Shown here one piece after another: positions 3,772 through 61,984 of a stretch of DNA of 64,000 nt. Every line of letters starts with the position of its first letter. The stretch's first letter is position 1. Both the position numbers and the translations under genes were made by a program. The notes under the pieces are model-generated. The model searched no databases. It had not been told where the DNA came from and worked only from the letters and a program-made list of their open reading frames with translations. This DNA comes from an uncultured Acidobacteriota bacterium (GTDB lineage Bacteria; Acidobacteriota; JAQAZP01). The stretch lies in assembly GCA_963836075.1 (NCBI GenBank), contig CAWIIB010000001.1, positions 64,001 through 128,000 on the forward strand, read 5' to 3'.

Positions 3772-5596
3772 ATGAAGAAACTCATCCGCATCTTCAGTTA
3801 CGCCCGACCATACAAGGGCCGGATGGCGGTGATGCTGGCCTGCATGCTGGGCGCGCACCCTGATCTCCCTGATGCCGGTGGCCATTTCCGCGCGATTTCA
3901 TCAACGTGCTGACCGGGGAGTCGGAGTCGGTTTCCAAGCTGCCCGAACAGCTGGGCGGTGCTTATCTCAATCGGATCATTGCCACCGGCGATACGCTGGC
4001 TGATGATCGAACTGCTCATCGCCGTGATGATCGCGGTGGCCCTGATCCGGCACCGGGCTCTCCCTGCTCCAGGCCTGGCTCTTCGGCAAGGTCGGAGCAC
4101 TGCTGATCTTCGATGTGCGCAAACAGCTCTTCGACCACCTGCAGCAACTCTCTCTCAAGTTTTACCAGCGCCGGGAGACCGGTGAGCTGATGTCCCGGAT
4201 CCTCAATGACGTGGGCACCATCCAGAGCATGCTCACCTCCACCTTCCTCAGCTTTATCACCAACATTTTCGCCGTGATCGTCTTCTTCGGGCTCTGATGC
4301 ACATGAACTGGCGGCTGACCCTCTTCTCCATGCTGATCCTGCCGCCGATGGTGCTCAACGTCCGGCTGTTCAACTTCCGTATCCGCCGGATCAGCCGTCT
4401 GGGAATGGAGAAGATGGCCGAGGTCTCCTCCTACCTCCAGGAATCGTTCACCGGCATCCGGGTGGTGCAGTCGTTCACCGGTGAGGAGCGGCGGAAGAAA
4501 GGGATTCCGTCAGCTGGCCCGGCAGCTGGTCTCCCTCGGCGTGCGGGCCGTGATGCTGGGAACGTTCCAGGCCCAGGTGGCCTCGCTGGTGATCACCGCC
4601 GGGACGGTGGGCATCCTCTGGTACGGGGCGCGGCTCCAGGCCCAGGGACTGATGGACTGGGGCAGCATCTTCGCCTTCTTCGTCCTGCTGATGATGTTCA
4701 TCGGGCCGATGACCGGGCTGATCCAGATCAACGTCCAGATTCAGGGCGCCCTGGCCGCCTTCGACCGGATCTTCGATCTGCTGGATCGCCGGCCCGAGGT
4801 GACCGACCGCCCCGGCGCCGTTGATATCGAAGGTGTGGCGCGGGGGATCGATTTTGATGGAGTGACCTTTGCCTACGAGGAAGGACGGCCGGTGCTGCAC
4901 GGGGTGACATTCAAGGTTGGCCGGGGGGAGACGGTGGCCCTGGTGGGGCCGTCCGGCGCGGGCAAGACCACCATGGTCAACCTGCTCTGCCGCTTCTACG
5001 ACCCCCAGGAGGGGCGGATCGAGATCGACGGCCGCGACCTGCGGGACGTCACCATCGACTCCCTGCGCCGGCGGATCGGCATCGTCGACCAGGAGACCTT
5101 TCTGTTCAACGACAGCCTGCTGGAGAACATCCGTTTCGGCCGGGACGTCAGCCTGGATGAAGTGACTGCCGCCACCAGGGCGGCCTATATCCACGACTAC
5201 ATCGAAGGGCTGCCCGAAGGGTACGAGACCGTGGTGGGGGAGCGGGGGGTGAGCCTTTCCGGCGGGCAGCGGCAGCGCATCGCCATCGCCCGGGCGATCC
5301 TCAAGAACCCGCCGGTTCTCATCCTTGACGAAGCCACCTCCTCGCTCGACTCGCAGTCCGAACGGTATATCCAGCTGGCCCTGGAAAAACTGATGACCGA
5401 CCGCACGGCGTTCATCATCGCCCACCGGCTCTCCACGGTGCAGCAGGCCGACCTGGTGCTGGTGCTCGAGGAGGGACGGGTGGTGCAGGCCGGGACCTAC
5501 AGCGAACTGCTGGCCGCCGATGGCCTGTTCCGCCGCCTCCACGACGAGCAGTTCAGAGGTTCGGCAGGGCCGGCGGCGGAAGATGCCCTCTCCTGA
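3772..5596 (+). CDS. MsbA/Sav1866-type ABC exporter (permease + ATPase), multiply frameshifted in its 5' half
   Basis: Fragments join: MKKLIRIFSYARPYKG..., RKQLFDHLQQLSLKFYQRRETGELMSR, MNWRLTLFS...YLQESFTGIRVVQSF. Intact NBD with GPSGAGKT, LSGGQRQR, ILDEATSSLD, IIAHRLST. Confidence 0.85.
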
Positions 5597-5630
5597 CCGC
5601 TGGACAGTTGAGCGGAAGAGGAGTGATGAG

Positions 5631-7169
5631 GTGCCCGAGGTGTTCAACCCCTCCTCGATGAAGCAGGCCATCTGCGTCAGCCTTCCCGGCGGCCGGGTCC
5701 ACGGCCTGCAGCCGCTGAGGGCCGCGCTCTCCACCGCCGCTGACCTGGTGGAGGTGCGCCTGGACCTGTTGCAGGAACCGGGCCGGCTGGAGGCCTGGGT
5801 CTCCGGCTGGAACCTGCCGGTGGTGGTGGCCTGCCGGCGGCAGGAGGACGGTGGCCGGTTCAGCGGATCGGAAGAGGAACGATTGGAGCTGCTGCAGCGG
5901 GCGGCACGGTCCGGGGCTGCCCTGGTGGACCTGGAGGACCACGCCGCATCGCTGATCCAGCGGACCGGATGGCCCTCCCGCACGCGGTTCATGCTCTCGA
6001 AGCACGACAGCTCCGGTCCGTTTTCGCGGCCGCTGACCGAGCTCTACCGCGAGCTGGCCTCCCTGGCCCCCGCGGCGGTGAAGCTGGTGCCCACGGCCCG
6101 CTGCCTGGAGGACGGGTTCCGCTTCCTCGAACAGCTGGAGGAACTCTCCGGGCGTATCGGTCCGGGAGATCCCCCACTCTCCGCTTTTTGCATGGGCGGC
6201 CCCGGTATCTTTACCCGCATCCTCGCCTTTTCCCGTGGTTCAGCCCTGGTCTATGCGTCCACGGCCCAGGATACCCCGGTGGCTCCGGGCCAGCTCACCG
6301 TGGACCAGCTGCTCGGCATCTACCGCTCCAGGGACCTGGGCCGGGATACCTGCTGCACCGGCATCCTCGGTGACCGGGTTGCCGGTTCCCTGTCACCGCT
6401 GATCCACAACCGGCTCTACCGTCGTCTCGGTCTGGACCGCTGCTACCTGCCCCTTCCGGCCGCCTCTTCCGAACTGCGTGGTCTGCTGCACCGGTTCAGT
6501 GCCGGGGACCTTCCCCTGGACCTGGGCGGGCTCAGCGTCACCGCCCCGTTCAAGATGGCCGTGATTCCGCTGGTGCACCAGCTCTCCTCCTGCGCCGGCC
6601 GGGCCGGGGCGGTGAACACCCTGGTCCGGCGCCGTTCCGGAGAACTGCGGGGCTACAACACCGACGTGCACGGGGTGCTGGCCACCCTGCGCCGCTCCGG
6701 TGCCGGTCCGTTCCAGGGGAAGAAGGCCCTGGTGATCGGCGCCGGGGGTGCTGCCCGGGCCGCGGCCCTGGCTCTTGACCGGCTGGGCATGCGGCTGGCT
6801 GTGGCCAACCGCACCGTCTCCCGGGCCACGAAGCTGGCCGGGGAGTGGGGCGGTGAGGGCGGTGGTCTGGACGATTTTCACGGTGCGGGTTTCCACCTGG
6901 TGGTCAACACCACCGCTGTATCCGCGGATGACCGCTTGCCCTCGTTCCAGCTGGTGGACAACAGCACCACCATTTTCGATCTCAACTACCACCCGCCGCT
7001 GACCCCGCTGCTGGCTGCCGGGAGACGTCTGGGCTGCCCCACGCTGGACGGGCTGGAGATGCTGGCCTGCCAGGGTGAGCGGCAGTTCCGGCTGTTCACC
7101 GGGGTCAAGCCTCCCCCGGGGGCGATGCTCGACATTCTGCGGGCCGTGGGCGGTGGGGGAGGAGAGTGA
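5631..7169 (+). CDS. aroDE: bifunctional type I 3-dehydroquinate dehydratase / shikimate dehydrogenase
   Basis: DHQase motifs VEVRLD, SKHD, VKLV, MG..G..TR, APGQ; SDH motifs SLSPLIHN, SVTAPFK, AVNT, NTD, GAGGAARA, DGLEML. Start uncertain (5583/5631/5658). Confidence 0.88.
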   Translation: MPEVFNPSSMKQAICVSLPGGRVHGLQPLRAALSTAADLVEVRLDLLQEPGRLEAWVSGWNLPVVVACRRQEDGGRFSGSEEERLELLQRAARSGAALVDLEDHAASLIQRTGWPSRTRFMLSKHDSSGPFSRPLTELYRELASLAPAAVKLVPTARCLEDGFRFLEQLEELSGRIGPGDPPLSAFCMGGPGIFTRILAFSRGSALVYASTAQDTPVAPGQLTVDQLLGIYRSRDLGRDTCCTGILGDRVAGSLSPLIHNRLYRRLGLDRCYLPLPAASSELRGLLHRFSAGDLPLDLGGLSVTAPFKMAVIPLVHQLSSCAGRAGAVNTLVRRRSGELRGYNTDVHGVLATLRRSGAGPFQGKKALVIGAGGAARAAALALDRLGMRLAVANRTVSRATKLAGEWGGEGGGLDDFHGAGFHLVVNTTAVSADDRLPSFQLVDNSTTIFDLNYHPPLTPLLAAGRRLGCPTLDGLEMLACQGERQFRLFTGVKPPPGAMLDILRAVGGGGGE

Positions 7170-8494
7170 TGACCGGAACAGCCGGGTCGCAAAAAAGCCT
7201 GGTCATGCCAGCCGTTCTGGATGGCATTCGGGGTGAGGTGCGGCTGCCCGGCTCGAAGAGCATCACCCACCGGGGGCTGGTGCTCGGTGCCCTGGCGGAC
7301 GGCACCACCCGGCTCAGCGGTGCGTCACTCTCCGGAGACTGTGGCCGGACCGTGGATGCCCTCCGCCGGCTGGGAACGGCCGTGACCATGGTGGGGGAGC
7401 AAGGGGAATTCCAGGTGCGTGGATGGGGGGATGATCCGCCCCACAGCTCAGGGCCGCTGGATGCCGGTGAATCCGGAACCACGGCCCGGTTCATGCTGCC
7501 GCTGCTGGCCCTGGGCAACGGCCGCCGTGAACTCCACGGGGGCCCACGGCTCTCCCGGCGCCCCATGGGGGCGCTGGTGGAGGCGCTGCAACTCCTGGGG
7601 GTCGATATTCAGCGCCCGGTCCCTGGCGCCGATCTGCCCCTGGTGCTGCAGGCCTGCGGAGTGGAGGGCGGGGCCGTCACCCTGGACGCCGGCCTCAGCA
7701 GCCAGTTCGCCAGTGCCCTGCTGCTGGCCGCCCCGAGGTTCCGGCACGGGCTGGCCCTCACCCTGGCCGGCGGACGGACGGCCTCCCGTCCCTACCTGGA
7801 GATGACCTGTTCCCTGATGGCCCGTTTTGGCGTCACCGTTGAACTGGAAGGGGAGGGGGTGTTCCGGGTCCCCGCCGGGTCCCGCTACCGCTCCCGGGAG
7901 CTGGTGGTGGAGGGGGACGCTTCCGCGGCCTCCTACTTCTGGGCCGCGGCGGCCGTCTGCGGAGGCGTGGTCCGCTGCACGCCGCTCTCGCCGGATGATT
8001 CGCTGCAGGGCGACATGGACTTTGTCCGCTTGCTGGAGCGCATGGGCTGTGCGGTGCGCAGCGGCCCCGGCTGGGTGGAGGTGCGGGGCGGCGCCCGGCC
8101 GCTCCGGCCGCTGGAGGTCTCCATGAACCGCATGCCCGACCTGGTGCCCACCCTGGCCGTGGCCGCCCTCTTCGCCCGTGGCCGGACCCGGATCACCGGC
8201 GCCGCCCACCTGCGGTGGAAGGAGTCCGACCGGCTGGGCGACCTGGCTCGCGAATTGCGGCGGCTGGGCGGCCTGGTGCAGGAGACGGAGGACGGGCTGG
8301 TGATCGAGGGGGACGGCGGAACGCGGCTGGCCGGGACGGCGGTGGAGACATACAATGACCACCGGATGGCGATGAGCCTTGCCGTGGCCGGCCTGCGCCT
8401 GCCCGGTACGCGTATCAAGGATCCGGACTGCGTGGCCAAGTCGTACCCGGATTTTTTTAACGACCTCTTCAGCCTGGTCGGGGATTCGGGGTAG
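7166..8494 (+). CDS. aroA: EPSP synthase (3-phosphoshikimate 1-carboxyvinyltransferase)
   Basis: LPGSKSITHR, GESGTTARF, SSQFASALL, EGDASAASY, HLRWKESDR, DHRMAMS, CVAKSYPDF. Confidence 0.96.
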   Translation: MMTGTAGSQKSLVMPAVLDGIRGEVRLPGSKSITHRGLVLGALADGTTRLSGASLSGDCGRTVDALRRLGTAVTMVGEQGEFQVRGWGDDPPHSSGPLDAGESGTTARFMLPLLALGNGRRELHGGPRLSRRPMGALVEALQLLGVDIQRPVPGADLPLVLQACGVEGGAVTLDAGLSSQFASALLLAAPRFRHGLALTLAGGRTASRPYLEMTCSLMARFGVTVELEGEGVFRVPAGSRYRSRELVVEGDASAASYFWAAAAVCGGVVRCTPLSPDDSLQGDMDFVRLLERMGCAVRSGPGWVEVRGGARPLRPLEVSMNRMPDLVPTLAVAALFARGRTRITGAAHLRWKESDRLGDLARELRRLGGLVQETEDGLVIEGDGGTRLAGTAVETYNDHRMAMSLAVAGLRLPGTRIKDPDCVAKSYPDFFNDLFSLVGDSG

Positions 8495-35844: not shown

Positions 35845-35951
35845 CCCTCTTGCTCCCTTGCCGGCCCGGGGCGCCAGGGCCCGGACCACCGGGGCCGGCG
35901 GGGTGAGTGGCCTCCTCCCGCCGGTTCCGGCTGGTCAGATCAGTGAGCTGT

Positions 35952-36824
35952 TCAGCGTCCCAGCGCCTCCAGCACCCGGTCGCCCAGGTCAGCGGGGCTC
36001 TCGCAGACCGTGATGCCGGCCTCGCGCAGAGCGGCCATCTTTTCCGCCGCGGTGCCCTTGCCCCCGGAGATGATGGCGCCGGCGTGGCCCATCCGTTTCC
36101 CCGGAGGGGCCGTGGCGCCGGCGATGAAGGCCACCACCGGCTTGGTCACGTGCTCCTTGACGTAGGCCGCGGCTTCCTCTTCGGCGGTGCCGCCGATCTC
36201 GCCGATCATCACCACCGCTTTGGTCTCGTCGTCCTTCTGGAACAGTTCGAGGCAGTCGATGAAGTTGGTGCCGTTCACCGGGTCACCGCCGATGCCGATG
36301 CAGGTGGACTGGCCCAGGCCGCGGGTGGTCACCTGGTGCACCGCTTCGTAGGTCAGGGTGCCGCTGCGCGAGATCACGCCAACCTCGCCCTCGCGGTGGA
36401 CGAATCCGGGCATGATCCCGATTTTCGCCTTGCCCGGGGAGATGACGCCGGGGCAGTTGGGGCCCACCAGGCGGGTTTTCTTGCCCTCCATGTAGCGGCG
36501 GACGGTGACCATGTCGATGGTGGGAATCCCCTCGGTGATACAGATCACCAGGTCCAGCCCGGCGTCCACCGCCTCCATGATCGCGTCGGCGGCAAAGGGC
36601 GGGGGAACGAAGATCACCGAGGCGTTGGCTCCCTGGGCTGCTACGGCCTCGGCCACCGTGTCATAGACCGGACGGTCCAGCACGGTCTGGCCGCCCTTGC
36701 CCGGGGTGACCCCGGCCACCACCTTGGTGCCGTACTCGATCATCTGCTCGGCGTGGAACATGCCTTCCTTGCCGGTGAACCCCTGGACCACCAGCCGTGT
36801 ATTCGAATCAACAAGAATGCTCAT
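35952..36824 (-). CDS. sucD: succinyl-CoA synthetase alpha subunit
   Basis: [35 protein letters not shown]. Confidence 0.97.
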
Positions 36825-36859
36825 TGCTCTTACCTTCTCCTCCAAGAGGAATTTCCGCG

Positions 36860-38023
36860 TCAGGCGGAAACCTTGACCACCATCTCTGCGGCTTCAGCCA
36901 GGCTGCTCGCCACCTCGAAGCTGAGGTCCGACTCCTCGAGGATCTTCTTCGCCTCGACGGCGTTGGTCCCCTCCAGCCGGATCACCATCGGCGGCAGGTC
37001 GCCTTCCATGCTGCTCAGCCCCTCGATCACGCCCCGGGCCACCCGGTCGCAGCGGACGATGCCGCCGAAGATATTGATCAGCACCGCCTTGACGTTGGGG
37101 TCGGCGGTGATGATGCGGAAGGCGCTGCTCACCGTCTCCGCATTGGCCGTGCCGCCCACGTCGAGGAAGTTGGCCGGGCTGCCGCCGGCCAGCTTGATGA
37201 TGTCCATGGTGGCCATGGCCAGGCCGGCGCCGTTGACCATGCAGCCCACGGTGCCGTCAAGCTTGATGTAGTTCAGGTTGTATTTCGAAGCCTCGATCTC
37301 CAGCGGCTCCTCTTCCTCCAGGTCGCGGTATTCGAGGATATCCTTGTGCCGGAACAGTGCGTTGTCGTCAAAGCTCAGCTTGGCGTCCAGGGCTACGACC
37401 TCGTTGTCGCCGGTGATCACCAGCGGGTTGATCTCCACCATCGAGGCGTCGGTGGCGGTGAACACCTTGTAGAGCTTGAGGATCGCTTTGGCCAGGTTAC
37501 CCGCGGCCTTCTTGTCCAGGTCGAGGGCAAAGGCCAGTTTGCGGGCCTGGAAGGGCAGCAGGCCGGTGGCCGGGTCCACGTGCTCCTTGATGATCGCCTC
37601 CGGCGTCTCGGCGGCCACCTTTTCGATCTCCATGCCGCCGGCGGCACTGAGCATCACCAGCGGGCGGGAGGCGGCGCGGTCCACCAGGATGCCGAGGTAG
37701 AGTTCCTGGGCGATGTCCAGGCCTTCCTCCACCAGCAGCCGTTTGACTTCCTTGCCCTCCGGGCCGGTCTGGTGGGTCACCAGGGTCATGCCCAGAATCT
37801 CACCGGCCAGCTGCTTCGCTTCCTCGACACTGTCGGCCAGCTTCACGCCGCCGCCCTTGCCGCGGCCGCCGGCGTGGATCTGTGCCTTGACCACCACCTT
37901 GTCGCTGCCCAGCTCCCGGGCCACCTTTTCGGCCTCTTCAACGCTGAACGCCGCCTCGCCCCGGGGCACGGGGACCCCGAACTTTCTCAGAACGGCCTTG
38001 GCCTGGTACTCGTGAATCTTCAT
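36860..38023 (-). CDS. sucC: succinyl-CoA synthetase beta subunit
   Basis: [44 protein letters not shown]. Confidence 0.97.
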
Positions 38024-38190
38024 CAATGCACTCCTGGATGGAAACGGTTGGTACATCCGGAGTCCGGCCGGTTCCGCGGGTGGCGGAAATCCGGTTCGGC
38101 ACCGGATGCCGGATATTTATAAACCTATCATATGCTTAGGCTTACAATCGTCTCGACGGCGGAAACCATAGCAGAAGCAGCAGGTTGTTG

Positions 38191-45167: not shown

Positions 45168-45195
45168 TTGACAAGCCAGTGGCCGTGGCTATAAT
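45168..45195 (+). promoter_or_regulatory. consensus sigma70 promoter of yceD-rpmF-plsX
   Basis: TTGACA-16 bp-TATAAT. Confidence 0.8.
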
Positions 45196-45250
45196 GAACC
45201 CGTTTAAAACAAAGGCGATAGAACCTTGGGCATGGCCGGGGGGGCGGTTG

Positions 45251-45811
45251 ATGAAGATCGACTTGAAAGAGATCGGTGCCTCGGGCATCTCCATCCAGCG
45301 CACCATACCCGCTGAGCGGTTCCATCAGGATGATGAAACCGGCCGCGGGATACTGCGGCTGCGTCACGATGCGTTGCTGAACCTGTCCGTCAAAAGGGCC
45401 GGCGAGCGGTTCCACCTCCGCGGGACCCTGGAGGCGGAGGTGGAGGCGGAGTGCGGGCGATGTCTGGCCCCTTTTTCGTTTGCGGTTCGTCCCCAGTTCG
45501 ATTATTATCTCGTGCCCCGGCGGCACGTTGAGGAGTGGGCCGAGGTGGAGATGGACGAAGCGGCCAAGCAGGAGGTGGAGGTGGACAGCATGGAGCTGGA
45601 CCTCCTGCACCTGGCGCGGGAACAGGTGCGGCTTGGTCTGCCGATGAAGCTGCTCTGCTCCGAGGCATGCCAGGGACTCTGTCTCGGATGCGGCGGCGAT
45701 CTGAACCGGGAGCAGTGCGCCTGCACCGGCGATGACCGGGACGATGATTCAGGCCTGGCGGTCCTGTCCGGCCTGCTGGAACGGTTGAAGAACGATTCCT
45801 CCGGTAACTGA
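45251..45811 (+). CDS. yceD: DUF177/YceD family protein
   Basis: CGRCL, LPMKLLCSEACQGLCLGCG.DLN...CAC; position before rpmF. Confidence 0.9.
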   Translation: MKIDLKEIGASGISIQRTIPAERFHQDDETGRGILRLRHDALLNLSVKRAGERFHLRGTLEAEVEAECGRCLAPFSFAVRPQFDYYLVPRRHVEEWAEVEMDEAAKQEVEVDSMELDLLHLAREQVRLGLPMKLLCSEACQGLCLGCGGDLNREQCACTGDDRDDDSGLAVLSGLLERLKNDSSGN

Positions 45812-45882
45812 CCCGCTGGTTCCGTGTTGCGGGCGCTTCAGCCGGGGAACAGAACGAGACGTGACAAAGGAGATGGGAAAAG

Positions 45883-46065
45883 ATGGCCAATCCGAAGCGC
45901 AGACATTCCAAGGCCCGGCGGGACAAAAGACGGACCCATGACAGTCTCACGCCCCCCAGCCTGTCGGTGTGCCCCAACTGCAACGAGCCGAAGCAACCTC
46001 ACCGGGTGTGCCCGCACTGCGGGTTCTACAAAGGTAAGGAAGTCGTTGAGATCAAAATGGCCTGA
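45883..46065 (+). CDS. rpmF: 50S ribosomal protein L32 (Zn-binding type)
   Basis: [21 protein letters not shown]...[10 protein letters not shown]. Confidence 0.97.
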
Positions 46066-46090
46066 TCTGGGGCCGGCAGCCGGGTGAAAA

Positions 46091-47107
46091 ATGAAAATCG
46101 CCGTCGACGCCATGGGCGGAGACTTTGCCCCCCGAAACGCGGTGGAAGGTGCGGTGGATGCCTGCCGCGAGTTCCAGCTGCCGGTGATTCTGGTGGGCCG
46201 GGAAGGGGAGATCCAGCAGGAACTGGATCGTCTCGGAGCCCGCGGCCTGCCCATCGACGTGGTTCATGCCGAAGAAGTGGTGGGCATGGACGAACCGGCG
46301 ATAACCGCGATCCGCAAGAAAAAGAAATCGTCCATCCGTATCGGCGCACGACTGGTCAAGGACGGTGACGCCCAGGGCTTCGTCAGCGCCGGCAATACCG
46401 GCGCGGTGATGGCCACCTCCAAGATCGTGATGAAATCACTGGAGGGGGTGCAGCGTCCGGCGCTGGCCACCGTGATGCCCACCAAGACCGGCTCCTCGAT
46501 CCTGCTCGACGTGGGCGCCAACGTGGATTGCCGGGCCAGGCACCTGATGCAGTTCGCGGTGATGGGCAGTTTCTACGCCGAGGCGATCCTCGGCCGCCGC
46601 AAGCCGAAGGTCGGCCTGCTGAGCATCGGTGAAGAGGACTCCAAGGGCAATGAGCAGACGAGGCAGGTGTTCGACATCCTGCGCCAGACGAGCATCAATT
46701 TCGTGGGCAACGTCGAGGGGCGGGATGTCTTCAACGGATCGGTGGACGTGATTGTCTGCGACGGCTTTGTGGGCAACATCACCCTCAAGGTGAGCGAGAG
46801 CCTGGCCGAGACCATGGAGCACCTGATCCGCTCCGAGATCGAGCGCAGTCTGCTTGCCCGGGTTGGCTACCTCTTCATGAAGCCGGCGTTCAACAAGTTC
46901 AAGAAGCGGGTCGATTATTCGGAATATGGAGGTGCCCCCCTGCTGGGCATCGGCGGGGTCTGCATCATCTGTCACGGACGGTCCTCGCCCAAGGCGATCA
47001 AGAATGCCGTGCGGGTGGCCGGGGATTTCTGTGCCAAGGACGTGAACGGCCAGATCTCCCGGGGCCTGGCCGAACTGGTTCGGCAGGAGGACAATGTCCT
47101 GGCCTGA
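46091..47107 (+). CDS. plsX: phosphate acyltransferase PlsX
   Basis: IAVDAMGGDFAP, SAGNTGA, LDVGAN, IGEE..KG, CDGFVGN, YGGAPLLG, HGRS. Confidence 0.97.
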   Translation: MKIAVDAMGGDFAPRNAVEGAVDACREFQLPVILVGREGEIQQELDRLGARGLPIDVVHAEEVVGMDEPAITAIRKKKKSSIRIGARLVKDGDAQGFVSAGNTGAVMATSKIVMKSLEGVQRPALATVMPTKTGSSILLDVGANVDCRARHLMQFAVMGSFYAEAILGRRKPKVGLLSIGEEDSKGNEQTRQVFDILRQTSINFVGNVEGRDVFNGSVDVIVCDGFVGNITLKVSESLAETMEHLIRSEIERSLLARVGYLFMKPAFNKFKKRVDYSEYGGAPLLGIGGVCIICHGRSSPKAIKNAVRVAGDFCAKDVNGQISRGLAELVRQEDNVLA

Positions 47108-47125
47108 AGGCCCGCCCGGGCCGTC

Positions 47126-47153
47126 TTGACTCGGGGGGGCAATCGGCTAGAAT
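47126..47153 (+). promoter_or_regulatory. internal sigma70 promoter upstream of acyl-CoA dehydrogenase-fabG
   Basis: TTGACT-16 bp-TAGAAT. Confidence 0.65.
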
Positions 47154-47303
47154 GATTGTTCGAATTTTCCGAATTTCAGAAACAGTTGAGGATCAGTCAT
47201 CCCGGGTTCGTGCCCGGACGGGACGCGGACCGGGCTGTTCGGCCTGCGCACGCGGCTGGTTCACAGGTTATCGCAGATCGACTTAAGGAGTGAGCCCCGA
47301 CCC

Positions 47304-48470
47304 ATGGAGTGGATGCTGAACGAAGAGCAGCGTGAAATCCAGGCCCTGACCCGCAAGATCGTGGACGAGAAGGTGGTCCCGGTCCGGATGGAGCTGGACA
47401 GGGCCGAGACGTTCCCCTGGGAACAGATCAACCTTTTCGCCGATGCCGGGCTGTTCGGCGTGTTCGTCGAGGAGAAATACGGCGGGTTCGGCGGAGCGAT
47501 GACCGACTGGTGCCTGGTGACCGACGAGATCAGCCGCGGCTGTATGGGCGTCTCCACCGCTTTTGCCGGCGTGGGGCTGGGCGCCTTCCCGCTGATCCTC
47601 GATGGCAACGAGGAACTGAAGGAGAAATATCTGCCCGGCATCGCCACGGGCAAGAGCCTGGCCGCTTTCGCCCTCACCGAGGCTGACGCCGGCAGCGACG
47701 CCGGCGGGATCAGGACCACGGCGGTGCGCGACGGCGACCATTTCGTGATTAACGGGACCAAGCAGTGGATCACCAACGCCGAGGTGGCCCAGACCTACTG
47801 CGTGGTGGCGATGACCAACCCGGCCAAGGGCCCGCGGGGGGCCAGCGTGATCCTGGTGGAGAAGGGCACCCCGGGGTTCACCTTCGGCAAGCTGGAAAAA
47901 AAGATGGGCATCAATTGCTCGTCCACCCGTGAGCTGATCTTCGAGGACTGTCGCGTTCCGGTGGCCAACCTGGTGGGGCGCGAGGGGGCCGGTTTTATCG
48001 TCACCATGCGAACCCTGAGCCGGGCCCGGGTGGGTGTCGGCGCGCAGGCGGTGGGCCTGTGCCGCGGGGCGTTGGAGCTGACGGTGGACTACTCGCGGCA
48101 GCGCAAGCAGTTCGACCGTCCCATCTGCTCTTTCCAGGCCGTGCAGCACATCCTCGCCGACATGGCCACCCAGACCGAAGCCGCGCGCTCGCTGGTCTAC
48201 AACACCACCAGGATGATCGACTGCGGCGCGAAGAATTTCGCCAAACGGGCGGCGATGGTCAAACTCTTCGCCTCCGACGTGGCGATGAAGGTGACCACCG
48301 ATGCGGTCCAGGTCTTCGGCGGGTACGGCTACATGAGGGAATACCCGGTGGAAAAGATGATGCGTGACGCCAAGATCCTGCAGATCTACGAGGGGACGAA
48401 CCAGATTCAGCGAAACGAGATCGGCGCCGCGCTGATCAAGGAGTCTGCATCCCGCAAGAGGAACAAATGA
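47304..48470 (+). CDS. acyl-CoA dehydrogenase family protein
   Basis: FALTEADAGSDA, NGTKQWITN, KMG, RKQF, FQAVQ, VQVFGGYGY, IYEGTNQIQR; stop overlaps fabG start. Confidence 0.96.
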   Translation: MEWMLNEEQREIQALTRKIVDEKVVPVRMELDRAETFPWEQINLFADAGLFGVFVEEKYGGFGGAMTDWCLVTDEISRGCMGVSTAFAGVGLGAFPLILDGNEELKEKYLPGIATGKSLAAFALTEADAGSDAGGIRTTAVRDGDHFVINGTKQWITNAEVAQTYCVVAMTNPAKGPRGASVILVEKGTPGFTFGKLEKKMGINCSSTRELIFEDCRVPVANLVGREGAGFIVTMRTLSRARVGVGAQAVGLCRGALELTVDYSRQRKQFDRPICSFQAVQHILADMATQTEAARSLVYNTTRMIDCGAKNFAKRAAMVKLFASDVAMKVTTDAVQVFGGYGYMREYPVEKMMRDAKILQIYEGTNQIQRNEIGAALIKESASRKRNK

Positions 48471-49228
48471 CCGTCATGGGCAGCGGGACACGCTTTGCAG
48501 GGAAACGGGCCATCGTCACCGGTGCCGCCCGGGGCATCGGTCTCTCCATCAGCCGGCTGCTGGCCGCGGAGGGGGCGCGGGTGGCCCTGGTGGACCTGGA
48601 TCAGGATGCCCTGTCCGCCGCCGCCAACCTGCTGTCCGGGGAGGGTGGCCAGTGCGTGGCCCACTGTCTCGACGTTGCCGACTCCGCAGCGGTGAAGGAA
48701 GCGGTGGCTGCGGTGAGCGGGGAATGGGGCGGCGTGGATTTCCTGGTCAACAATGCCGGGATCACCCGTGACAGCCTGATGCTGCGGATGAAAAAAGCCG
48801 ACTGGGACCTGGTGCTGCGGGTCAACCTGGACAGCGTGTTCCACTTCTCCCAGGCGGTGCTCAAACCGATGATCAAGGCCCGGCAGGGCCGGATCATCAG
48901 CATCAGTTCCGTGGTGGGGGTGATGGGCAATCCGGGGCAGGCAAACTACGCGGCCTCAAAAGCGGGCATCATCGGCTTCTCGCGCTCGCTGGCCCGGGAA
49001 GTGGCTCCGCGGGGAATCACGGTGAACGTCGTGGCCCCCGGGTTTATCGACACCGAGATGACCTCCGGGCTGCCCGAGGGGGTGCGCGAGGACCTGCTGT
49101 CCAGGGTTCCCCTGGGCCGGCTGGGGACGGTGGAGGACATCGCCCGCAGTGTGGCCTTTCTGCTGGGAGACGACTCCGCCTACATCACCGGGCAGGTGCT
49201 CGGTGTCAATGGCGGAATGTATATGTAG
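48467..49228 (+). CDS. fabG: 3-oxoacyl-ACP reductase
   Basis: TGAARGIG, NNAGITRD, GNPGQANYAASKAG, PGFIDTEMT, VNGGMYM. Confidence 0.95.
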   Translation: MTVMGSGTRFAGKRAIVTGAARGIGLSISRLLAAEGARVALVDLDQDALSAAANLLSGEGGQCVAHCLDVADSAAVKEAVAAVSGEWGGVDFLVNNAGITRDSLMLRMKKADWDLVLRVNLDSVFHFSQAVLKPMIKARQGRIISISSVVGVMGNPGQANYAASKAGIIGFSRSLAREVAPRGITVNVVAPGFIDTEMTSGLPEGVREDLLSRVPLGRLGTVEDIARSVAFLLGDDSAYITGQVLGVNGGMYM

Positions 49229-49328
49229 CCGGGCCGGCGGCCGGTCCGGACCGTTGATGCCGCCGGAAGCGATTTGATCACATCAGCCCTCTGATCTTTC
49301 ACTTAAACGTACTTTGGGAGGTTTTCGG

Positions 49329-49574
49329 ATGGACGAGAAAAAAATCGAGGCGAAGGTCAAGGAAATCGTCATGGAGCAGCTGGGTGTGGACGAGGAGGAA
49401 GTGACCCAGGAGGCCTCTTTTGTCGACGACCTCGGCGCCGATTCCCTGGATACCGTGGAACTGGTGATGGCCTTCGAGGAAGAGTTCGACATCGAAATTC
49501 CCGACACCGACGCTGAAAAAATCAGCCGGGTCAAGGAAGCCGTCGAATACATCAAGGGCCACATCGACAGCTGA
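49329..49574 (+). CDS. acpP: acyl carrier protein
   Basis: [21 protein letters not shown]. Confidence 0.97.
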
Positions 49575-49731
49575 CCGGCTTCCCGGTCCCCACGGCGGGC
49601 AGACCGCTGGCGGCGTCACCGCCGCCGGGGACTCTTTCGCCCCCGGCGAGGGCACCGTGGAGCCCGGCTGTCTCTGGTCACCTGCCGAACCTCGCCCGGT
49701 GAGCGGCCTGATCGGAGGAGGTGCTGAAGAG

Positions 49732-50975
49732 ATGACGAAAAGACGAGTGGTCATCACCGGTCTCGGATTGGTCACCCCGCTGGGCCTGGGCAACGACGCC
49801 AACTGGGAGGCCCTGCGGTCCGCCAGGAGCGGCGTCGGGCTGATCACCCACTTCGACACCACCGACTACCCGGTGAAAATCGCCGCTGAAGTCCGGGACT
49901 TCGACCCGCTGCAGTTCATCGACAAGAAAGAACTGAAGAAGATGGACCGCTTCATCCACTTCGCCATTGCCGCGGCCCAGTTCGCGGTGGAGGACAGCGG
50001 CCTCGACCTCGCGGCCCTCGATTCCGATCGGGCCGGGGTGAGCATCGGCAGCGGCATCGGCGGCCTGGAGTCCATCGAGCGGCAGCACAAGGTGGTGCTG
50101 GAGCGCGGCCCAAAACGGATATCGCCTTTCTTCATCCCCGGCCTGATCGTCAACCTGGCGGCGGGTCACGTCTCGATCCGTTTCCGGGCCCGGGGGCCCA
50201 ACCTCGCCCATTGCACCGCCTGTTCCACCGGGACCCATGCCGTGGGGGAAGCCTTCCGCGCCATCCAGTACGGACATGCCGATCGGATGATCTGCCGGCG
50301 GCACCGAGGCGGTCATCTGCCCGCTGGCCGTGGGCGGGTTCGCGGCGATGAAGGCCCTCTCCACCCGCAACGACGACCCGGCCACGGCCAGCCGGCCCTT
50401 CGACGCCACCCGCGACGGCTTCGTGATGGGCGAGGGCGCCGGGGTGCTGATCCTCGAGGAGCGGGAGGCCGCGGTGGCCCGCGGAGCGCGGATCTATGCC
50501 GAGCTGAGCGGCTTCGGGATGGCGGCGGACGCCTTCCATATCACTGCGCCCAGCGAGGACGGTGACGGGGCGTTGCGGGTGATGAAGGCCGCCATCGAGG
50601 ATGCCGGCTGTCGCCCTTGCGGACGTGGACTACATCAACGCCCACGGCACGGCCACGCCACCCGGCGATCGTACCGAGACCCTGGCGATCAAGAATCTCT
50701 TCGGTGATCACGCCCGCAAGCTCGCCGTCAGCTCCACCAAGTCTTCCACCGGCCACCTGCTGGGTGCCGCCGGAGGCGTGGAAACGGCGATCACTGCCTG
50801 GGCGGTGCTCAACGACATTCTGCCGCCCACCATCAACCTGCAGCACCCGGACCCGGACTGCGACCTGGACTACGTGCCCAACGAGGCCCGTCCGTCCGAG
50901 GTGCGCATCGCCCTGACCAACTCCTTCGGCTTCGGGGGAACGAACGCGTCCCTGTTGCTGAGGAAGCACGAGTAG
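49732..50975 (+). CDS. fabF: beta-ketoacyl-ACP synthase II (two +1 frameshifts near 50293 and 50609)
   Basis: [15 protein letters not shown]; [16 protein letters not shown]; [27 protein letters not shown]. Confidence 0.93.
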
Positions 50976-51010
50976 CGGCCCCAAGCCTTCCACATCAATC
51001 GGAGAGAGAA

Positions 51011-51800
51011 ATGAACTCAATTGTCTGTCTGAAGCAGGTCCCGGACACCGAAGCGAGGATCAAGATCGCTCCCGACAAGGTGGGGATCGACGAGAGCGAC
51101 ATCCAGCTGGTGGTCAATCCCTTTGACGAATACGCCATCGAAGCCGCCCTGCTGCTCAAGGAGCAGGCGGGGCAGGGGACCGTGACCCTGGTCAGCCAGG
51201 GCGGGGAATCTGCCGCGACGGCGCTGCGCACCGGTCTGGCCATGGGGGCCGACAGCGCGGTGCTGCTCAAGGACCCGGCCTTCGACGGGCTCCGACTCCC
51301 TCGGTGTGGCGCGGATTCTCGCTTCGGCCATCTCCACCATGGAATTCGACGTGATCCTCCTCGGCAAGTACGGGGTGGGCGGGGACAACAACCAGGTGGG
51401 GCCGATGCTGGCCCAGTTGCTGGACCTGCCGCACGTCGGGGTGGCGATCCAGCTGGAGGTCGCCGAGGGGCAGGCCGTGGTGCACCGGTCGGTGGAGGGG
51501 GCGGTGGAAGTCGTGGAGACGTCCCTGCCCGCCGTGATCACCGCGGAGAAGGGGCTCAACGAACCGCGCTACGCCTCGCTCAAGGGAATCATGATGGCCA
51601 AACGCAAACCGATCGAGGAGCGTGACGCCGCCGCCCTGGGGCTGGATGCGGGTACCGTGGGAACTGCCGGGGCACTGCTGCAGCAGACCCGGCTGGAACT
51701 CCCGCAGCCCCGGCCCGAGGGGCGGATCATCGAAGGGGAGCCGGCCGAGGCGGCAAGGGAACTGGTCCGGCTGCTCCACGAAGAGGCCAAAGTCATCTGA
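51011..51800 (+). CDS. etfB: electron transfer flavoprotein beta subunit (one +1 frameshift near 51288)
   Basis: KQVPDT, NPFDEYAIE, LAMGAD; then LPAVIT, NEPRYASLKGIM. Confidence 0.93.
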
Positions 51801-51836
51801 GGCAACCATCTGGCCCAGCGACGAGGGACAACAATC

Positions 51837-52826
51837 ATGGCACATACATCGATACTGGTTTTTGCAGAACAGCGGGACGGCAGTCTGAAGAAGGCCGCCG
51901 TCGAAGCGGTGTCCGAAGGACGGCGAGTGGCCGACCAGCTGGGCGCCGAACTCCACGTGGCCCTGCTGGGCAGCGGGCTGGACAGTCTGGCCGGCGGCCT
52001 CGAGGGCTGGGGCATCGATCAGCTGCACACCGCCGACCACCCCGACCTGCGCTACTACAGCGCTGAAGGCTACAGCCTTGTGCTGGCGGCGATGATCGGT
52101 CAACTCTCACCGTCCGTGGTGCTCCTCCCCGCCACGGCCATGGGCAAGGACGTGGCTCCCCGGGTGGCGGCCATCTGCGGCGCCGGGCTGGCCACCGACT
52201 GCACCGCCCTCTCCGTGGAAGACGGAAGGCTCACGGCCCAGCGGCCGGTCTATGCCGGCAAGGCCATCGCCACCGTGCGCTGGGCCGGGGAGACGATGCA
52301 GATGGCCACCCTGCGGCCCAACGTTTTTGCCGCTTCGACGCGGGATGGTTCCGGCGCACCGGCGGCCGCTCCTTTCACCGTGGAGGGGCTGGAAGGAAAG
52401 ATCCGGGCCCGGGTGCGGGACGTGGAGGGCGGCGGCGGCGGGACAAAGGATGTCACCGAGGCCGACGTGATCGTGGCCGGCGGGCGCGGGATGAAGGGGG
52501 CGGAGCACTTCTCGCTGCTCGAGGACCTGGCCCGCCAGCTCGACGGGGCGGTGGGCGCCTCCCGGGCGGTGGTGGATTCGGGCTGGATCAGTCACCAGGC
52601 ACAGGTGGGTCAGACCGGCAAGACGGTTTCCCCGCAGCTCTACATCGCCTGCGGCATCTCCGGGGCGATCCAGCACCTGGCCGGCATGTCCTCCTCCAAG
52701 TGCATCGTGGCGGTGAACAAGGACCCCGAAGCGCCGATCTTCAAGGTGGCCGACTACGGCATCGTGGGCGACCTGTTCGAAGTGGTTCCGGTGCTCACCG
52801 AGGAGATCGCGCGGCTCAAGGAGTAG
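51837..52826 (+). CDS. etfA: electron transfer flavoprotein alpha subunit
   Basis: [43 protein letters not shown]. Confidence 0.96.
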
Positions 52827-52827
52827 G

Positions 52828-54063
52828 GTGCGATACGAACTCTTCATCGCCCTGCGCTACCTCAAGGCGAGGCGCAAGCAGACCTTCGTCTCTGTGATCA
52901 CCGGGATTTCCATGCTCGGTGTGATCGTCGGGGTCACCGCGCTGGTCATCGCCCTGGCCCTGGCTGCCGGGTTCCGCCAGGATTTCCGGGACAAGATTCT
53001 CGGCGCCGAAGCCCACATCTACATCTACGGGTTCTCTTCGGCCGGGGGCATCACCGACACCGCAGGACTGGTTCGCCGCGCCGAAGCGCAGGACAATGTC
53101 CACGCTGCCGCCCCGATGGCCTGGGGCGTGGGGCTGGTATCCAGCGGACTGGACAACCGTTTCGTCCGGATCAAGGGCGTGGATCCCGCCTCGAATATCC
53201 GCCAGGTGGTGGATTTCAGCAGCTACCTGGTGTCCGGAATGCTGGAAGACCTCCAGCCGGCGGCCGGCCGGCGGCCGGGGATCATCCTCGGCCAGGGGCT
53301 GGCCAGAGTGCTCGGTTCCGGCGTGGGGGACACGGTGCGGGTTCTGACCCAGAACGGGTCCCTCTCTCCGCTGGGTCTCCTGCCCCGCCCCCGCTCCTTC
53401 CGGGTGGCCGGCATCTTTTCTTCGGGTATGTCGGACTACGACGACCAGTGGGCCTTTGTCTCGCTGGCTGAGGCACGGCGGCTGCTGTCGCTGGAAGCCG
53501 GGGCCAGCGTGGTGCTGGTGCGGGTGGAGGACGTGGGCCGGCTGGAACAGACCCGGGAGGACCTTGCCGGGGAACTGGGACAGGGATACCTGGTCAAGGA
53601 CATCCTCACCGAGAACCGTCCGCTCTTTTCGGCGCTGAAAGTGGAGAAGTTGATGACCTTCATCACCATCGGCCTGATCGTGATGGTGGCCGCCCTCAAT
53701 ATTGTCTCCAGCCTGGTGATGATGGTGATGGAGAAGACGCGGGACATTGCCGTGCTGCGGTCCATGGGGGCCACCCGGGGGGCGATCACCAGGATCTTCA
53801 TCTACCAGGGCAGCATCGTCGGGATTGCGGGGACCCTGGTGGGCTGCGCCGCGGGGTTCGTCTCGGCCCGGCTGCTCGACAGTTGGCAATTGATCCGCCT
53901 CGATCCCCGGGTCTACTACATTGACTATGTGCCCTTCCGTATCATGCCCCTCGATTTCACCCTGGTGGCCGTCACGGCGGTGTTGATCAGTTTCCTGGCC
54001 ACCCTCTACCCGGCCTGGCAGGCGGCTCGCCTGGAACCGGCGGAGGCGCTGCGCTATGAGTGA
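52828..54063 (+). CDS. lolE: lipoprotein-releasing ABC transporter permease LolC/E
   Basis: IALRYL, ISMLGV, MVMEKTRDIAVLRSMGA, LATLYPA...P.EALRYE. Confidence 0.9.
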   Translation: MRYELFIALRYLKARRKQTFVSVITGISMLGVIVGVTALVIALALAAGFRQDFRDKILGAEAHIYIYGFSSAGGITDTAGLVRRAEAQDNVHAAAPMAWGVGLVSSGLDNRFVRIKGVDPASNIRQVVDFSSYLVSGMLEDLQPAAGRRPGIILGQGLARVLGSGVGDTVRVLTQNGSLSPLGLLPRPRSFRVAGIFSSGMSDYDDQWAFVSLAEARRLLSLEAGASVVLVRVEDVGRLEQTREDLAGELGQGYLVKDILTENRPLFSALKVEKLMTFITIGLIVMVAALNIVSSLVMMVMEKTRDIAVLRSMGATRGAITRIFIYQGSIVGIAGTLVGCAAGFVSARLLDSWQLIRLDPRVYYIDYVPFRIMPLDFTLVAVTAVLISFLATLYPAWQAARLEPAEALRYE

Positions 54064-54766
54064 TTCGGCGGACAGCCGGACGCCGCTGCTGGAGTGCCGC
54101 CGGCTGCACAAGTCGTTCACCCTCGGCTCCGGCGGGCGGGTGGACGTTCTCTGCGGCCTGGACCTGCAGGTGCCCCGGGGGGAGATCCTGGCCATCACCG
54201 GTGCTTCCGGGGTGGGCAAGAGCACCCTGCTCCACGTCCTGGGGGCGCTGGAGCCGCCCGATTCGGGAACTATCCATTTTCAGGGTGAAGACCTCTATGC
54301 CCGGGGGCGGAACGGCCTGGCCGGTTTTCGCAACCGGCGGATCGGTTTTATCTTCCAGTTCCACCACCTGCTGCCCGAGTTCTCCGCCCTGGAAAACGCG
54401 ATGATGCCCGCGCTGATCGCCGGGGAGCCGCGCGGCCGTGCCGCTGAACGGGCGCGGGAACTGCTGCAAGCCGTCGAGCTGGGCCACCGGCTGGGACAAC
54501 GGCCGGGCAAGCTGTCCGGCGGCGAACAGCAGCGGGTGGCCATCGCCCGGGCACTGGTGATGAACCCTGACCTGGTGCTGGCTGACGAGCCCACGGGAAA
54601 CCTCGACTCGGGCAGCAGCCGCAATGTTCACGGGATCTTCCACCGGCTCCAGGCGGACCGCGGATTCACGGCTGTCCTGGCCACCCACAACCCCGAATTG
54701 GCCGCGGCCGCCGACCGGGTGCTGCGCATGGAGGAGGGGCTGCTGCACCAACCGGCGGAGCCGTGA
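54056..54766 (+). CDS. lolD: lipoprotein-releasing ABC transporter ATPase
   Basis: [45 protein letters not shown]. Confidence 0.92.
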
Positions 54767-61546: not shown

Positions 61547-61984
61547 TTGATGACCATCGATTTTCGCGAAATACTGGAGATCATGCCGCACCGCTATCCG
61601 TTCCTCCTGGTGGACCGGATCCTGGAATGCGAGAAGGGGAAGCGGGTGGTGGGGATCAAGAACGTGACCTTCAACGAACCGTTCTTCCAGGGCCATTTCC
61701 CCGGGGCGCCGGTGATGCCCGGCGTGCTGATTCTCGAGGCCATGGGCCAGGTGGGGGCGGTGCTCCTGCTGCAGGCGGTGCCTGACCGGGAAAAGAAGTT
61801 GATCTACTTCGTCGGCATCGACGAGGCCCGGTTCCGGCAGCCGGTGGTGCCGGGCGACCAGCTCCGCTTCGAGCTTGAGGTGTTGCGGCAGAAACCGAAG
61901 ATCGCCAAGGTCAAGGGGCGCGCCTACGTCGAGGACAAGCTGGTGGCCGACGCGGTCCTGACATCCTTTATCGTCGACCGCTGA
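61547..61984 (+). CDS. fabZ: 3-hydroxyacyl-ACP dehydratase
   Basis: [30 protein letters not shown]. Confidence 0.97.

Follow-up and report, generated by a model that had tools for sequence, protein, structure and literature searches.

A Bcd-like acyl-CoA dehydrogenase and an electron-transfer flavoprotein of unusual type in a housekeeping fatty acid synthesis operon of an uncultured Acidobacteriota bacterium: a possible second enoyl-thioester reductase

We describe a type II fatty acid synthesis (FAS II) operon of an uncultured Acidobacteriota bacterium in which a flavoenzyme of the acyl-CoA dehydrogenase (ACAD) family and both subunits of an electron-transfer flavoprotein (ETF) are encoded among the fab genes. 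The window, by which we mean the whole stretch of 64,000 nucleotides that was analysed, covers positions 64001-128000 of contig C1 in a genome of 6.23 Mb (10 contigs, 94.7% complete, 4.6% contamination); its G+C content is ~65%. A first-pass annotation had read the gene order plsX-ACAD-fabG-acpP-fabF-etfB-etfA on the + strand and proposed that the ACAD and the ETF act together on thioesters of the acyl carrier protein (ACP). Annotation with family models bears out the gene order, and the core of the operon reads as follows.

47304-48470, + strand: ACAD, a Bcd-like flavoenzyme of the acyl-CoA dehydrogenase family, 388 aa (Pfam ACAD N, M and C domains)
48467-49228, + strand: fabG, 3-oxoacyl-ACP reductase (NF004197, 337 bits, and TIGR01830, 323 bits, both above cut-off)
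49329-49574, + strand: acpP, acyl carrier protein, counted from its ATG (NF002149, 124 bits, and TIGR00517, 112 bits, above cut-off)
49732-50975, + strand: fabF, beta-ketoacyl-ACP synthase II, the housekeeping copy (TIGR03150, in three pieces)
51011-51800, + strand: etfB, the small ETF subunit (NCBIfam and Pfam ETF matches on both of its pieces)
51837-52826, + strand: etfA, the large ETF subunit, 329 aa (Pfam ETF and ETF_alpha)

The stop codon of the ACAD gene overlaps the start of fabG in the tetranucleotide ATGA (48467-48470), as can be read directly in the sequence; etfB begins 35 nt behind the fabF stop (50975 to 51011), and a consensus scan found no terminator-like site from 45466 to 54327. 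These observations support a single operon, in which ACAD (47304-48470) and etfBA (51011-52826) would be co-transcribed with the housekeeping FAS II genes. The surroundings agree with two further statements of the first-pass annotation: there is no β-oxidation context, as no thiolase, hydratase or 3-hydroxyacyl-CoA dehydrogenase is found among the annotated genes between 42.5 and 62.8 kb, and the window shows no FabI, FabK or FabL, its sole adh_short_C2 match being fabG, while the matches to FabK and FabL models lie outside it. The dehydratase gene fabZ does lie in the window, as had been noted, and is the single match to the FabA/FabZ family in the whole genome. The genes fabH and fabD are missing from the FAS cluster of the window; relatives have them flanking ACAD, so that ACAD occupies the position where relatives have fabH and/or fabD. 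In this genome FabD is found at C9:2312462, and a FabH-like gene, scoring below its cut-off, elsewhere on C1.

Before the operon core the + strand carries, in order, mutL, an open reading frame (ORF) of 228 aa, yceD, rpmF and plsX; behind etfA it carries a LolCE-like permease, its ABC ATPase, a Clp ATPase, bamA, lpxD, fabZ and lpxA. The acpP ORF as listed begins at a TTG at 49314, with the ATG at 49329. A promoter scan gave three sites, compared with 1.0 ± 1.0 in shuffled sequences. The flanking features are these.

45168-45195, + strand: sigma-70-like promoter site, 12/12 (consensus match only)
45179-45811, + strand: yceD (DUF177), first gene of the usual yceD-rpmF-plsX lead-in (Pfam PF02620, 83 bits)
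45883-46065, + strand: rpmF, ribosomal protein L32 (Pfam PF01783, 96.9 bits)
46091-47107, + strand: plsX, phosphate acyltransferase (TIGR00182, 373 bits against a cut-off of 243)
47126-47153, + strand: promoter-like site, 10/12, inside the 196-nt gap between plsX and ACAD (consensus match only)
52828-54063, + strand: LolCE-like permease, starting 1 nt past the etfA stop (Pfam MacB_PCD and FtsX)
54056-54766, + strand: ABC ATPase of the LolCE-like permease (Pfam ABC_tran)
61547-61984, + strand: fabZ, between lpxD and lpxA (Pfam PF07977, 132 bits)

As assembled, fabF is spread over three frames (49657-50565, 50330-50707 and 50601-50975, with two extra bases) and etfB over two (51011-51625 and 51306-51800, with one), and every break is mended by skipping a single base. 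The fabF pieces match positions 1-185, 197-292 and 291-407 of TIGR03150 with a summed score of ~604 bits, and once joined they give the genome its sole ketosynthase of FabF grade. Contigs from Logan for four public runs, sediment metagenomes each from a different study (X1, X2, X4 and X5, labelled as freshwater, salt-marsh or marine sediment) were aligned to 49600-51900. The extra base at 50295 in fabF is missing in X2, X4 and X5, that at 50606/50608 in X1, X4 and X5, and that at 51285/51286 in etfB in X1, X2, X4 and X5; apart from the missing bases, the two X1 contigs spanning a break match the window exactly. Both genomes of the same genus (G001 and G002) have fabF and etfB each in a single frame. 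Because the extra bases are missing from the public runs and the congeners read in one frame, the breaks are assembly errors and the two genes are intact in nature; pseudogenisation is ruled out by the same four runs and both congeners. Elsewhere in the window, at 35900-38060 and 4475-7170, long ORFs overlap on opposite strands, for example 35907-37271 (+) and a sucC-like ORF at 36860-38056 (-); this suggests further single-base errors, and the assembly may hold many indels.

To place the operon within its phylum, ACAD served as the query against a sample of 201 genomes; matches of at least 57% identity were found in 24, whose flanks were inspected. The layout plsX-[fabH]-ACAD-[fabD]-fabG-acpP-fabF-etfB-etfA occurs in 18 of the 201 genomes, belonging to six families, with the contig stopping ahead of etfBA in two of them; outside the genus, ACAD orthologs of 57-65% identity hold the same operon position in 15 further genomes. 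Of the 201 genomes, 110 carry a homolog of the window EtfB (E≤1e-45), and etfB was confirmed to adjoin fabF in 37 of the 46 genomes examined, representing 19 families; 21 of these 37 have no ACAD in the operon. The synteny is thus not peculiar to this genome. Since etfB-etfA still stands directly behind acpP-fabF in 21 of the 28 genomes examined that lack an ACAD in the FAS cluster, the link between the ETF and FAS is much wider than the insertion of the ACAD. Operons with and without ACAD are interleaved in the EtfB tree, and on this sequence evidence it is likely that the phylum first had the ETF behind fabF and that a Bcd-like ACAD was captured into the operon later, in the lineage of the window. 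Of two unpublished genomes, G025 is counted in the raw tallies (ACAD presence, FabX- and FabK-like matches, EtfB homologs) and G151 in that of EtfB homologs, while both are left out of the synteny lists and of the comparison of FabI with ETF given below.

Two variants of the phylum's operons deserve mention. In one (G030:C82, locus L163, 9826-10929), etfB and etfA of a fabF-linked pair are separated by an ORF of 367 aa whose N-terminus is signal-like. At two loci, L166 (G045:C1, 2-2028) and L056 (G030:C82, 6001-7137), ACAD genes lie upstream of plsX and on its strand, at a distance of 1.5-6 kb; these ACADs are 39-50% identical to that of the window, and their genomes have fabF-etfBA and no ACAD in the operon.

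Similar associations are found outside the phylum, where in 35 of 80 named loci two or more FAS genes share the ACAD strand within 8 kb, with ACADs that are 59-66% identical to that of the window. These loci belong to Nitrospirota, Thermodesulfobacteriota, Actinomycetota, Margulisiibacteriota, Auribacterota and others, and their gene orders differ: we observed plsX-fabH-ACAD-etfB-etfA-fabD-fabG-acpP-fabF, fabF-ACAD-etfB-etfA, and plsX-ACAD-(fabD)-fabG-acpP-fabF with no ETF nearby. The EtfA encoded in FAS operons of other phyla is 394-400 aa long and fused to a ferredoxin. In Bacillota the loci consist of ACAD-etfBA alone, and in many Thermodesulfovibrionales the ortholog is a lone gene; the contexts of such lone genes in Thermodesulfovibrionales (L087 and L088) and Kiritimatiellia (L129) offered no hint of function. 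As the linkage is conserved both in the phylum of the window, for the ACAD layout and for the ETF alone, and in other phyla, the link of ACAD and ETF to the FAS operon is not due to chance. In two metagenome-assembled genomes labelled as Actinomycetota and Margulisiibacteriota, a FabK-like gene lies between acpP and fabF (L065:13167-14147 and L103:13197-14171) of operons that also hold ACAD-etfB-etfA with a ferredoxin-fused EtfA, so that a conventional-looking reductase and the trio stand together; the L065 protein reaches 196 bits with the FabK model and has FabK 7L00 as its best match in the PDB.

The ACAD itself resembles enzymes of the butyryl-CoA dehydrogenase type. Its best NCBIfam model is AcrC, the clostridial acryloyl-CoA reductase subunit, with a score of 434 bits that lies below the cut-off of 640, and its best PDB matches are Bcd of Clostridioides difficile (5OL2_C, 382 bits) and 4L1F (365 bits). 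The catalytic glutamate of the IYEG motif, which the first-pass annotation had recognised, is E363 and is invariant in all 35 FAS-context ACADs aligned. In the ACAD tree the lineage of the window forms one clade (SH-aLRT 92) amid ACADs of other phyla, while the ACAD of one genome of the same phylum (G029) nests among named Nitrospirota, a placement that could reflect gene transfer. When 36 FAS-context ACADs are compared with a Bacillota clade of eight members, few columns discriminate between them (R28, C70, A180 and gains of Lys or Arg at 17, 142 and 272). The basic C-terminal tail singled out at first pass is indeed present, although it is no special feature: Bacillota homologs outside any FAS context have a ...SKKK-type tail too, which rules it out as an ACP-docking feature. 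A complex prediction for two copies of ACAD with AcpP gave a score of 0.00; made without controls, it counts neither for nor against binding.

With the ETF the picture is a mixed one. PF01012 is found on both subunits and PF00766 (ETF_alpha) on EtfA, with 127 bits, and EtfA has no N-terminal ferredoxin domain. The best PDB matches of EtfA are CarE (6FAH_A, 280 bits), 4KPU_A (245 bits), 5OL2_A (232 bits) and human EtfA (204 bits), so that by sequence it resembles bifurcating EtfA most. EtfB scores nearly equally on CarD (151 bits) and on the canonical Paracoccus protein (1EFP_B, 148 bits): its N-terminal KQVPDT stretch is like that of CarD and of the DGDT-type EtfB proteins described below, and unlike that of Paracoccus, while the alignment shows a recognition-loop stretch very like that of Paracoccus ETF. 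Most distinctive is the nucleotide-binding zipper, the stretch that holds the bifurcating FAD in ETFs of the bifurcating kind. According to PMC8958531, it reads D-G-D-T-A-Q in 216 bifurcating ETFs, with the Thr 100% conserved, and D-D-D-x-N-Q in 449 canonical ETFs, the first Asp being invariant in both classes; a look for ETF motifs in PMC6085437 yielded none. In the lineage of the window the zipper is GGDNNQ, and all 36 fabF-linked EtfB aligned have a zipper of the type G-x-D-x-x-Q, with Gly at the first position, no Thr and no DGDT, whereas all 33 EtfB encoded directly after an ACAD at other loci have DGDT[AG]Q. These 33 form one side of a branch with 100% support in the EtfB tree. The FAS-linked ETF of the phylum is therefore a clade of its own, with a zipper that is neither of the bifurcating nor of the canonical kind. 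The analogy with Bcd-EtfAB drawn by the first-pass annotation is weakened by an EtfB that lacks the bifurcating-type zipper.

The genome has a second ETF module, at C1:1280060-1285116, comprising a 693-aa ORF of membrane and Fe-S-like character, an EtfB (SGDDGSGH in the zipper region), an EtfA and an ACAD that is only 37% identical to that of the window. It looks like an electron path of anaerobic β-oxidation, and its 693-aa ORF (C1:1280060-1282141) encodes a putative ETF-reoxidising membrane protein.

The first-pass annotation had raised the possibility that the ACAD and ETF are the enzyme that closes the elongation cycle. As the only enoyl-ACP reductase of this organism they do not hold up: one of the ten adh_short_C2 genes in the genome is a FabL equivalog (C1:1875453-1876289; NF005975, 369.7 bits against a cut-off of 328), which stands alone and adjoins feoAB-like genes. 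Among the control genomes the FabL model matched in B. subtilis only. Across the whole genome none of the ten adh_short_C2 genes has a FabI model as its best match, and NF005717 has no match at E≤1e-50; the best score on the FabK model TIGR03151 is 150 bits against a cut-off of 453; and FabV models (PF12241 and NF010177) have no match in the genome, a weak test given that the control genomes were likewise without signal. The 150-bit FabK match is in fact a FabX homolog with the NMO fold (C1:1581404-1582498; L001:1468-2559), located outside the window, which matches H. pylori FabX over its full length (7E1Q/9LT5, 247 bits, compared with 108 bits for FabK 7L00). In H. pylori FabX the [4Fe-4S] cysteines are C300, C304, C308 and C320 in a C-terminal subdomain (PMC8626469); all four align in the homolog, which also retains the His of the GGH stretch. 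The same study describes a 'back-tracking' dehydrogenation of acyl-ACP by H. pylori FabX and names oxygen as its only known electron acceptor (PMC8626469). The organism that carries this homolog occurs in sediment metagenomes. Strict co-occurrence of FabX-like genes with FAS-linked ETF was considered as well, and was not found across the census genomes.

The wider distribution of reductases was surveyed in two sets of genomes. Among the 18 genomes with the ACAD layout there is no FabI-like protein, FabL (at least 312 bits) is found in 11 and a FabK-like protein (at least 225 bits) in nine, adjacent to FabL in six; none of FabI, FabL and FabK is found in four (G014, G031, G050 and G077). The census set proper comprised genomes G000-G040 with G025 left out, and the same FabK-like threshold. 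Its 17 genomes with a fabF-linked ETF include one with FabI-like, five with FabL, six with FabK-like and seven with none of these, whereas its 23 genomes without one include 17 with FabI-like, two with FabK-like and four with none; for 17 of these 23 the status follows from the absence of an EtfB match (E≤1e-45) and not from inspection of the fabF flanks. FabI and the FAS-linked ETF are thus nearly mutually exclusive (1 of 17 compared with 17 of 23), in genomes that are related and not independent. In five genomes lacking FabI, FabL and FabK (G006, G013, G030, G031 and G014) the fabF-linked pair is the sole ETF, and G006, assembled as one contig, and G013, 100% complete, have one ACAD each; G013 has no match to 3HCDH_N, the 3-hydroxyacyl-CoA dehydrogenase domain.

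Two side observations concern related enzymes. In six relatives the FabL equivalog directly adjoins a FabK-like gene that scores 328-343 bits, below the FabK cut-off; the pairing is odd, and one member may do something else. The pairs are located at

G018:C2:3162922-3164648
G035:C7:188009-189756
G101:C174:13843-15586
G125:C68:20919-22662
G113:C7:12996-14698
G137:C210:4180-5884

An accessory cluster in the genome of the window (C9:2942600-2946842) may be a second system of FAS or polyketide synthase type; one of its genes is FabD-like (164 bits), and two encode ketosynthases that score 419 and 217 bits with the FabF model.

We suggest that ACAD and EtfBA constitute an ETF-coupled enoyl/acyl-thioester oxidoreductase that serves FAS II as a second reductase, a tentative reading to which we would give a probability of about 0.4. 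ACAD and EtfBA would be redox partners that interconvert, within the FAS cycle, trans-2-enoyl thioesters and their saturated acyl counterparts, with ACP as the presumed carrier and reduction as the presumed physiological direction; they would provide a pyridine-nucleotide-independent enoyl-ACP reductase beside the FabL of this genome, with which it would be redundant here, and in relatives without FabI, FabL and FabK (for example G006, G013, G030 and G031) it is possibly the sole one. The proposal draws on the operon structure and its conservation, on the reductase census with its genomes that lack FabI, FabL and FabK, and, by analogy, on the finding that the nearest solved relatives of the ACAD are the enoyl-CoA-reducing Bcd proteins of Bcd-EtfAB complexes. 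Taken further, a relay of electrons from ETF to ACAD for enoyl-ACP would add to FabI, FabK, FabL and FabV a fifth class of reductase, one that is unrelated to them and works as a flavoprotein relay; it would use a third kind of ETF, by its zipper, found in about half of the phylum and mostly where FabI is lacking, with the ACAD captured into the operon in the lineage of the window and with the bifurcating-ETF versions elsewhere as energy-conserving variants. This broader scheme we regard as somewhat unlikely.

Several points weigh against a second reductase. The presence of FabL means that ACAD and ETF are not needed to close the cycle here, and FabL and/or a FabK-like protein is encoded in 14 of the 18 ACAD-layout genomes; the FabI pattern may simply follow lineage and oxygen lifestyle. 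Since EtfB lacks the Thr of DGDTAQ, NADH may not be the electron donor, and no other donor is evident; a non-bifurcating ETF would more naturally accept electrons, in the direction of a dehydrogenase. Apart from a few gains of Lys or Arg relative to the Bacillota clade (positions 17, 28, 142 and 272), the only signal of that comparison, nothing ACP-specific was found in the ACAD. Finally, homologs from lone-gene or etfBA-only contexts, 59-66% identical, are interleaved with the FAS-context ACADs in the tree.

This last observation also favors the alternative that fares best, although we still consider it unlikely: an ordinary Bcd-type ACAD and its ETF would act on CoA esters, in short-chain or lipid turnover, and be co-located and co-regulated with FAS II while standing outside its cycle. 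Close homologs of the ACAD do occur in classical ACAD-etfBA or lone-gene contexts, no ACP-specific feature has been demonstrated in it, and the genome has conventional candidates for all FAS II steps (FabL, FabZ, FabG, FabF, FabD, the FabH-like protein and the FabX homolog). However, such a role would hardly lead one to expect the genes to sit within the core operon, both between plsX and fabG and directly behind fabF, a placement that is kept across 19 families of the phylum and recurs in other phyla with different gene orders. It also sits poorly with the lack of β-oxidation genes nearby, with the separate β-oxidation-style module of Fe-S/membrane protein, EtfB, EtfA and ACAD in the same genome, and with G013, which retains the FAS-linked ETF and an ACAD without a 3HCDH_N match.

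A second alternative reverses the reaction, and we regard it as distinctly doubtful. Here the ACAD would dehydrogenate a saturated acyl-ACP, or acyl-CoA, yielding the trans-2-enoyl thioester, and the electrons would pass through a non-bifurcating ETF to the membrane, for example by way of the Fe-S/membrane protein of the second ETF module, allowing an O2-independent modification of fatty acids such as unsaturation. The zipper of EtfB, which is not of the bifurcating type, and its Paracoccus-like recognition loop would suit this direction, as would the putative ETF-reoxidising protein and a genome without FabA, in which the FabA/FabZ family has one member only; FabX of H. pylori provides a precedent for dehydrogenation of acyl-ACP (PMC8626469). 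Against this, the FabX homolog with its four cluster cysteines (247 bits) is already a candidate for the role, the FabX-like desaturation that the first-pass annotation had envisaged for the ACAD, and no isomerase partner was identified. In addition, ACAD orthologs of other phyla pair with DGDT-type (33 of 33) and ferredoxin-fused ETFs, whose known relatives are reductive.

Least probable is that the ETF works mainly for a different lipid-synthesis flavoenzyme, for example as anaerobic electron partner of the FabX homolog or of a FabK-like protein, the ACAD being a client added later in the lineage of the window: the 21 of 37 verified fabF-etfBA genomes without an ACAD in the operon, and the interleaving of both kinds in the EtfB tree, would fit, but FabX- and FabK-like matches (E≤1e-30) are missing in six of the 17 genomes with a FAS-linked ETF (G003, G006, G011, G013, G030 and G031), an ACAD is present in 40 of the 41 genomes searched, and to our knowledge the partners of ETFs are ACADs and a few other dehydrogenases, not proteins of the NMO/FabK fold.

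A literature search, with most subscription journals outside its coverage, found no publication that ties ACAD and ETF to enoyl reduction in FAS II, and the term 'acyl-CoA dehydrogenase' has no occurrence in the accessible text of a 2022 review on enoyl-ACP reductases (PMC9260719). Conserved in many relatives, the operon link may point to a redox step of lipid synthesis that has yet to be described, even though this genome has an ordinary enzyme for the step as well. Enoyl-ACP reduction is the step of fatty acid synthesis with the greatest diversity of enzymes and a major antibacterial target, and many anaerobic lineages are still without a recognised reductase; a conserved ACAD/ETF module in the core operon, with a distribution complementary to that of FabI, offers a concrete candidate for the missing enzyme, one that can be put to the test. 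The module could also account for the way in which energy-limited anaerobes of sediments couple lipid synthesis to their electron flow through flavins and ferredoxin. The ETF clade is of note in itself, as it breaks the rule of two classes, bifurcating and canonical, at the nucleotide-binding zipper. Even if the module handles CoA esters only, the finding bears on annotation: in metabolic reconstructions of these phyla, a gene labelled 'acyl-CoA dehydrogenase' or 'ETF' that lies in a fab operon should not pass for β-oxidation until it has been tested.

A comparison with known systems helps to define what is proposed here. The carrier-protein-dependent ACADs (MbtN, RedW/PigA) share the ACAD fold and act on substrates bound to carrier proteins; the ACAD of the window scores weakly on their models (MbtN, 82 bits with a cut-off of 700; RedW, 250 with 650; PigA, 235 with 500) and passes the model of no carrier-protein-dependent ACAD family. 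H. pylori FabX (7E1Q), the functional analogy offered at first pass, dehydrogenates acyl-ACP at the 2,3 position, but it is an FMN/[4Fe-4S] enzyme of the NMO fold and not an ACAD. Canonical group 1 ETFs (human 1EFV/1T9G and Paracoccus 1EFP) are similar in EtfB score and in the recognition-loop stretch; they have AMP bound and differ in the zipper, which in the window is not D-D-D-x-N-Q, the first Asp being replaced by Gly and the second position being variable, and the operon has no ETF:quinone oxidoreductase gene. Closest are bifurcating Bcd-EtfAB (5OL2, and 4KPU/4L1F of A. fermentans) and CarCDE of A. woodii (6FAH), the nearest solved relatives of the ACAD and EtfA, with the same three components and with the catalytic Glu kept; the bifurcating complexes couple enoyl-CoA reduction to NADH and ferredoxin and carry two FAD per ETF. 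In the window, however, fabG-acpP-fabF separate ACAD from etfBA, EtfB has GGDNNQ in place of DGDTAQ, EtfA lacks the ferredoxin domain of CarE, and the context is FAS II rather than fermentation. With FabI, FabL, FabK and FabV, the ACAD/ETF module would share the reaction, the reduction of trans-2-enoyl-ACP, and the site in a FAS II operon, and its distribution is complementary to that of FabI; it would carry out this step with an ACAD fold, FAD and an ETF, where those enzymes are short-chain dehydrogenase/reductase or TIM-barrel FMN proteins working on NAD(P)H.

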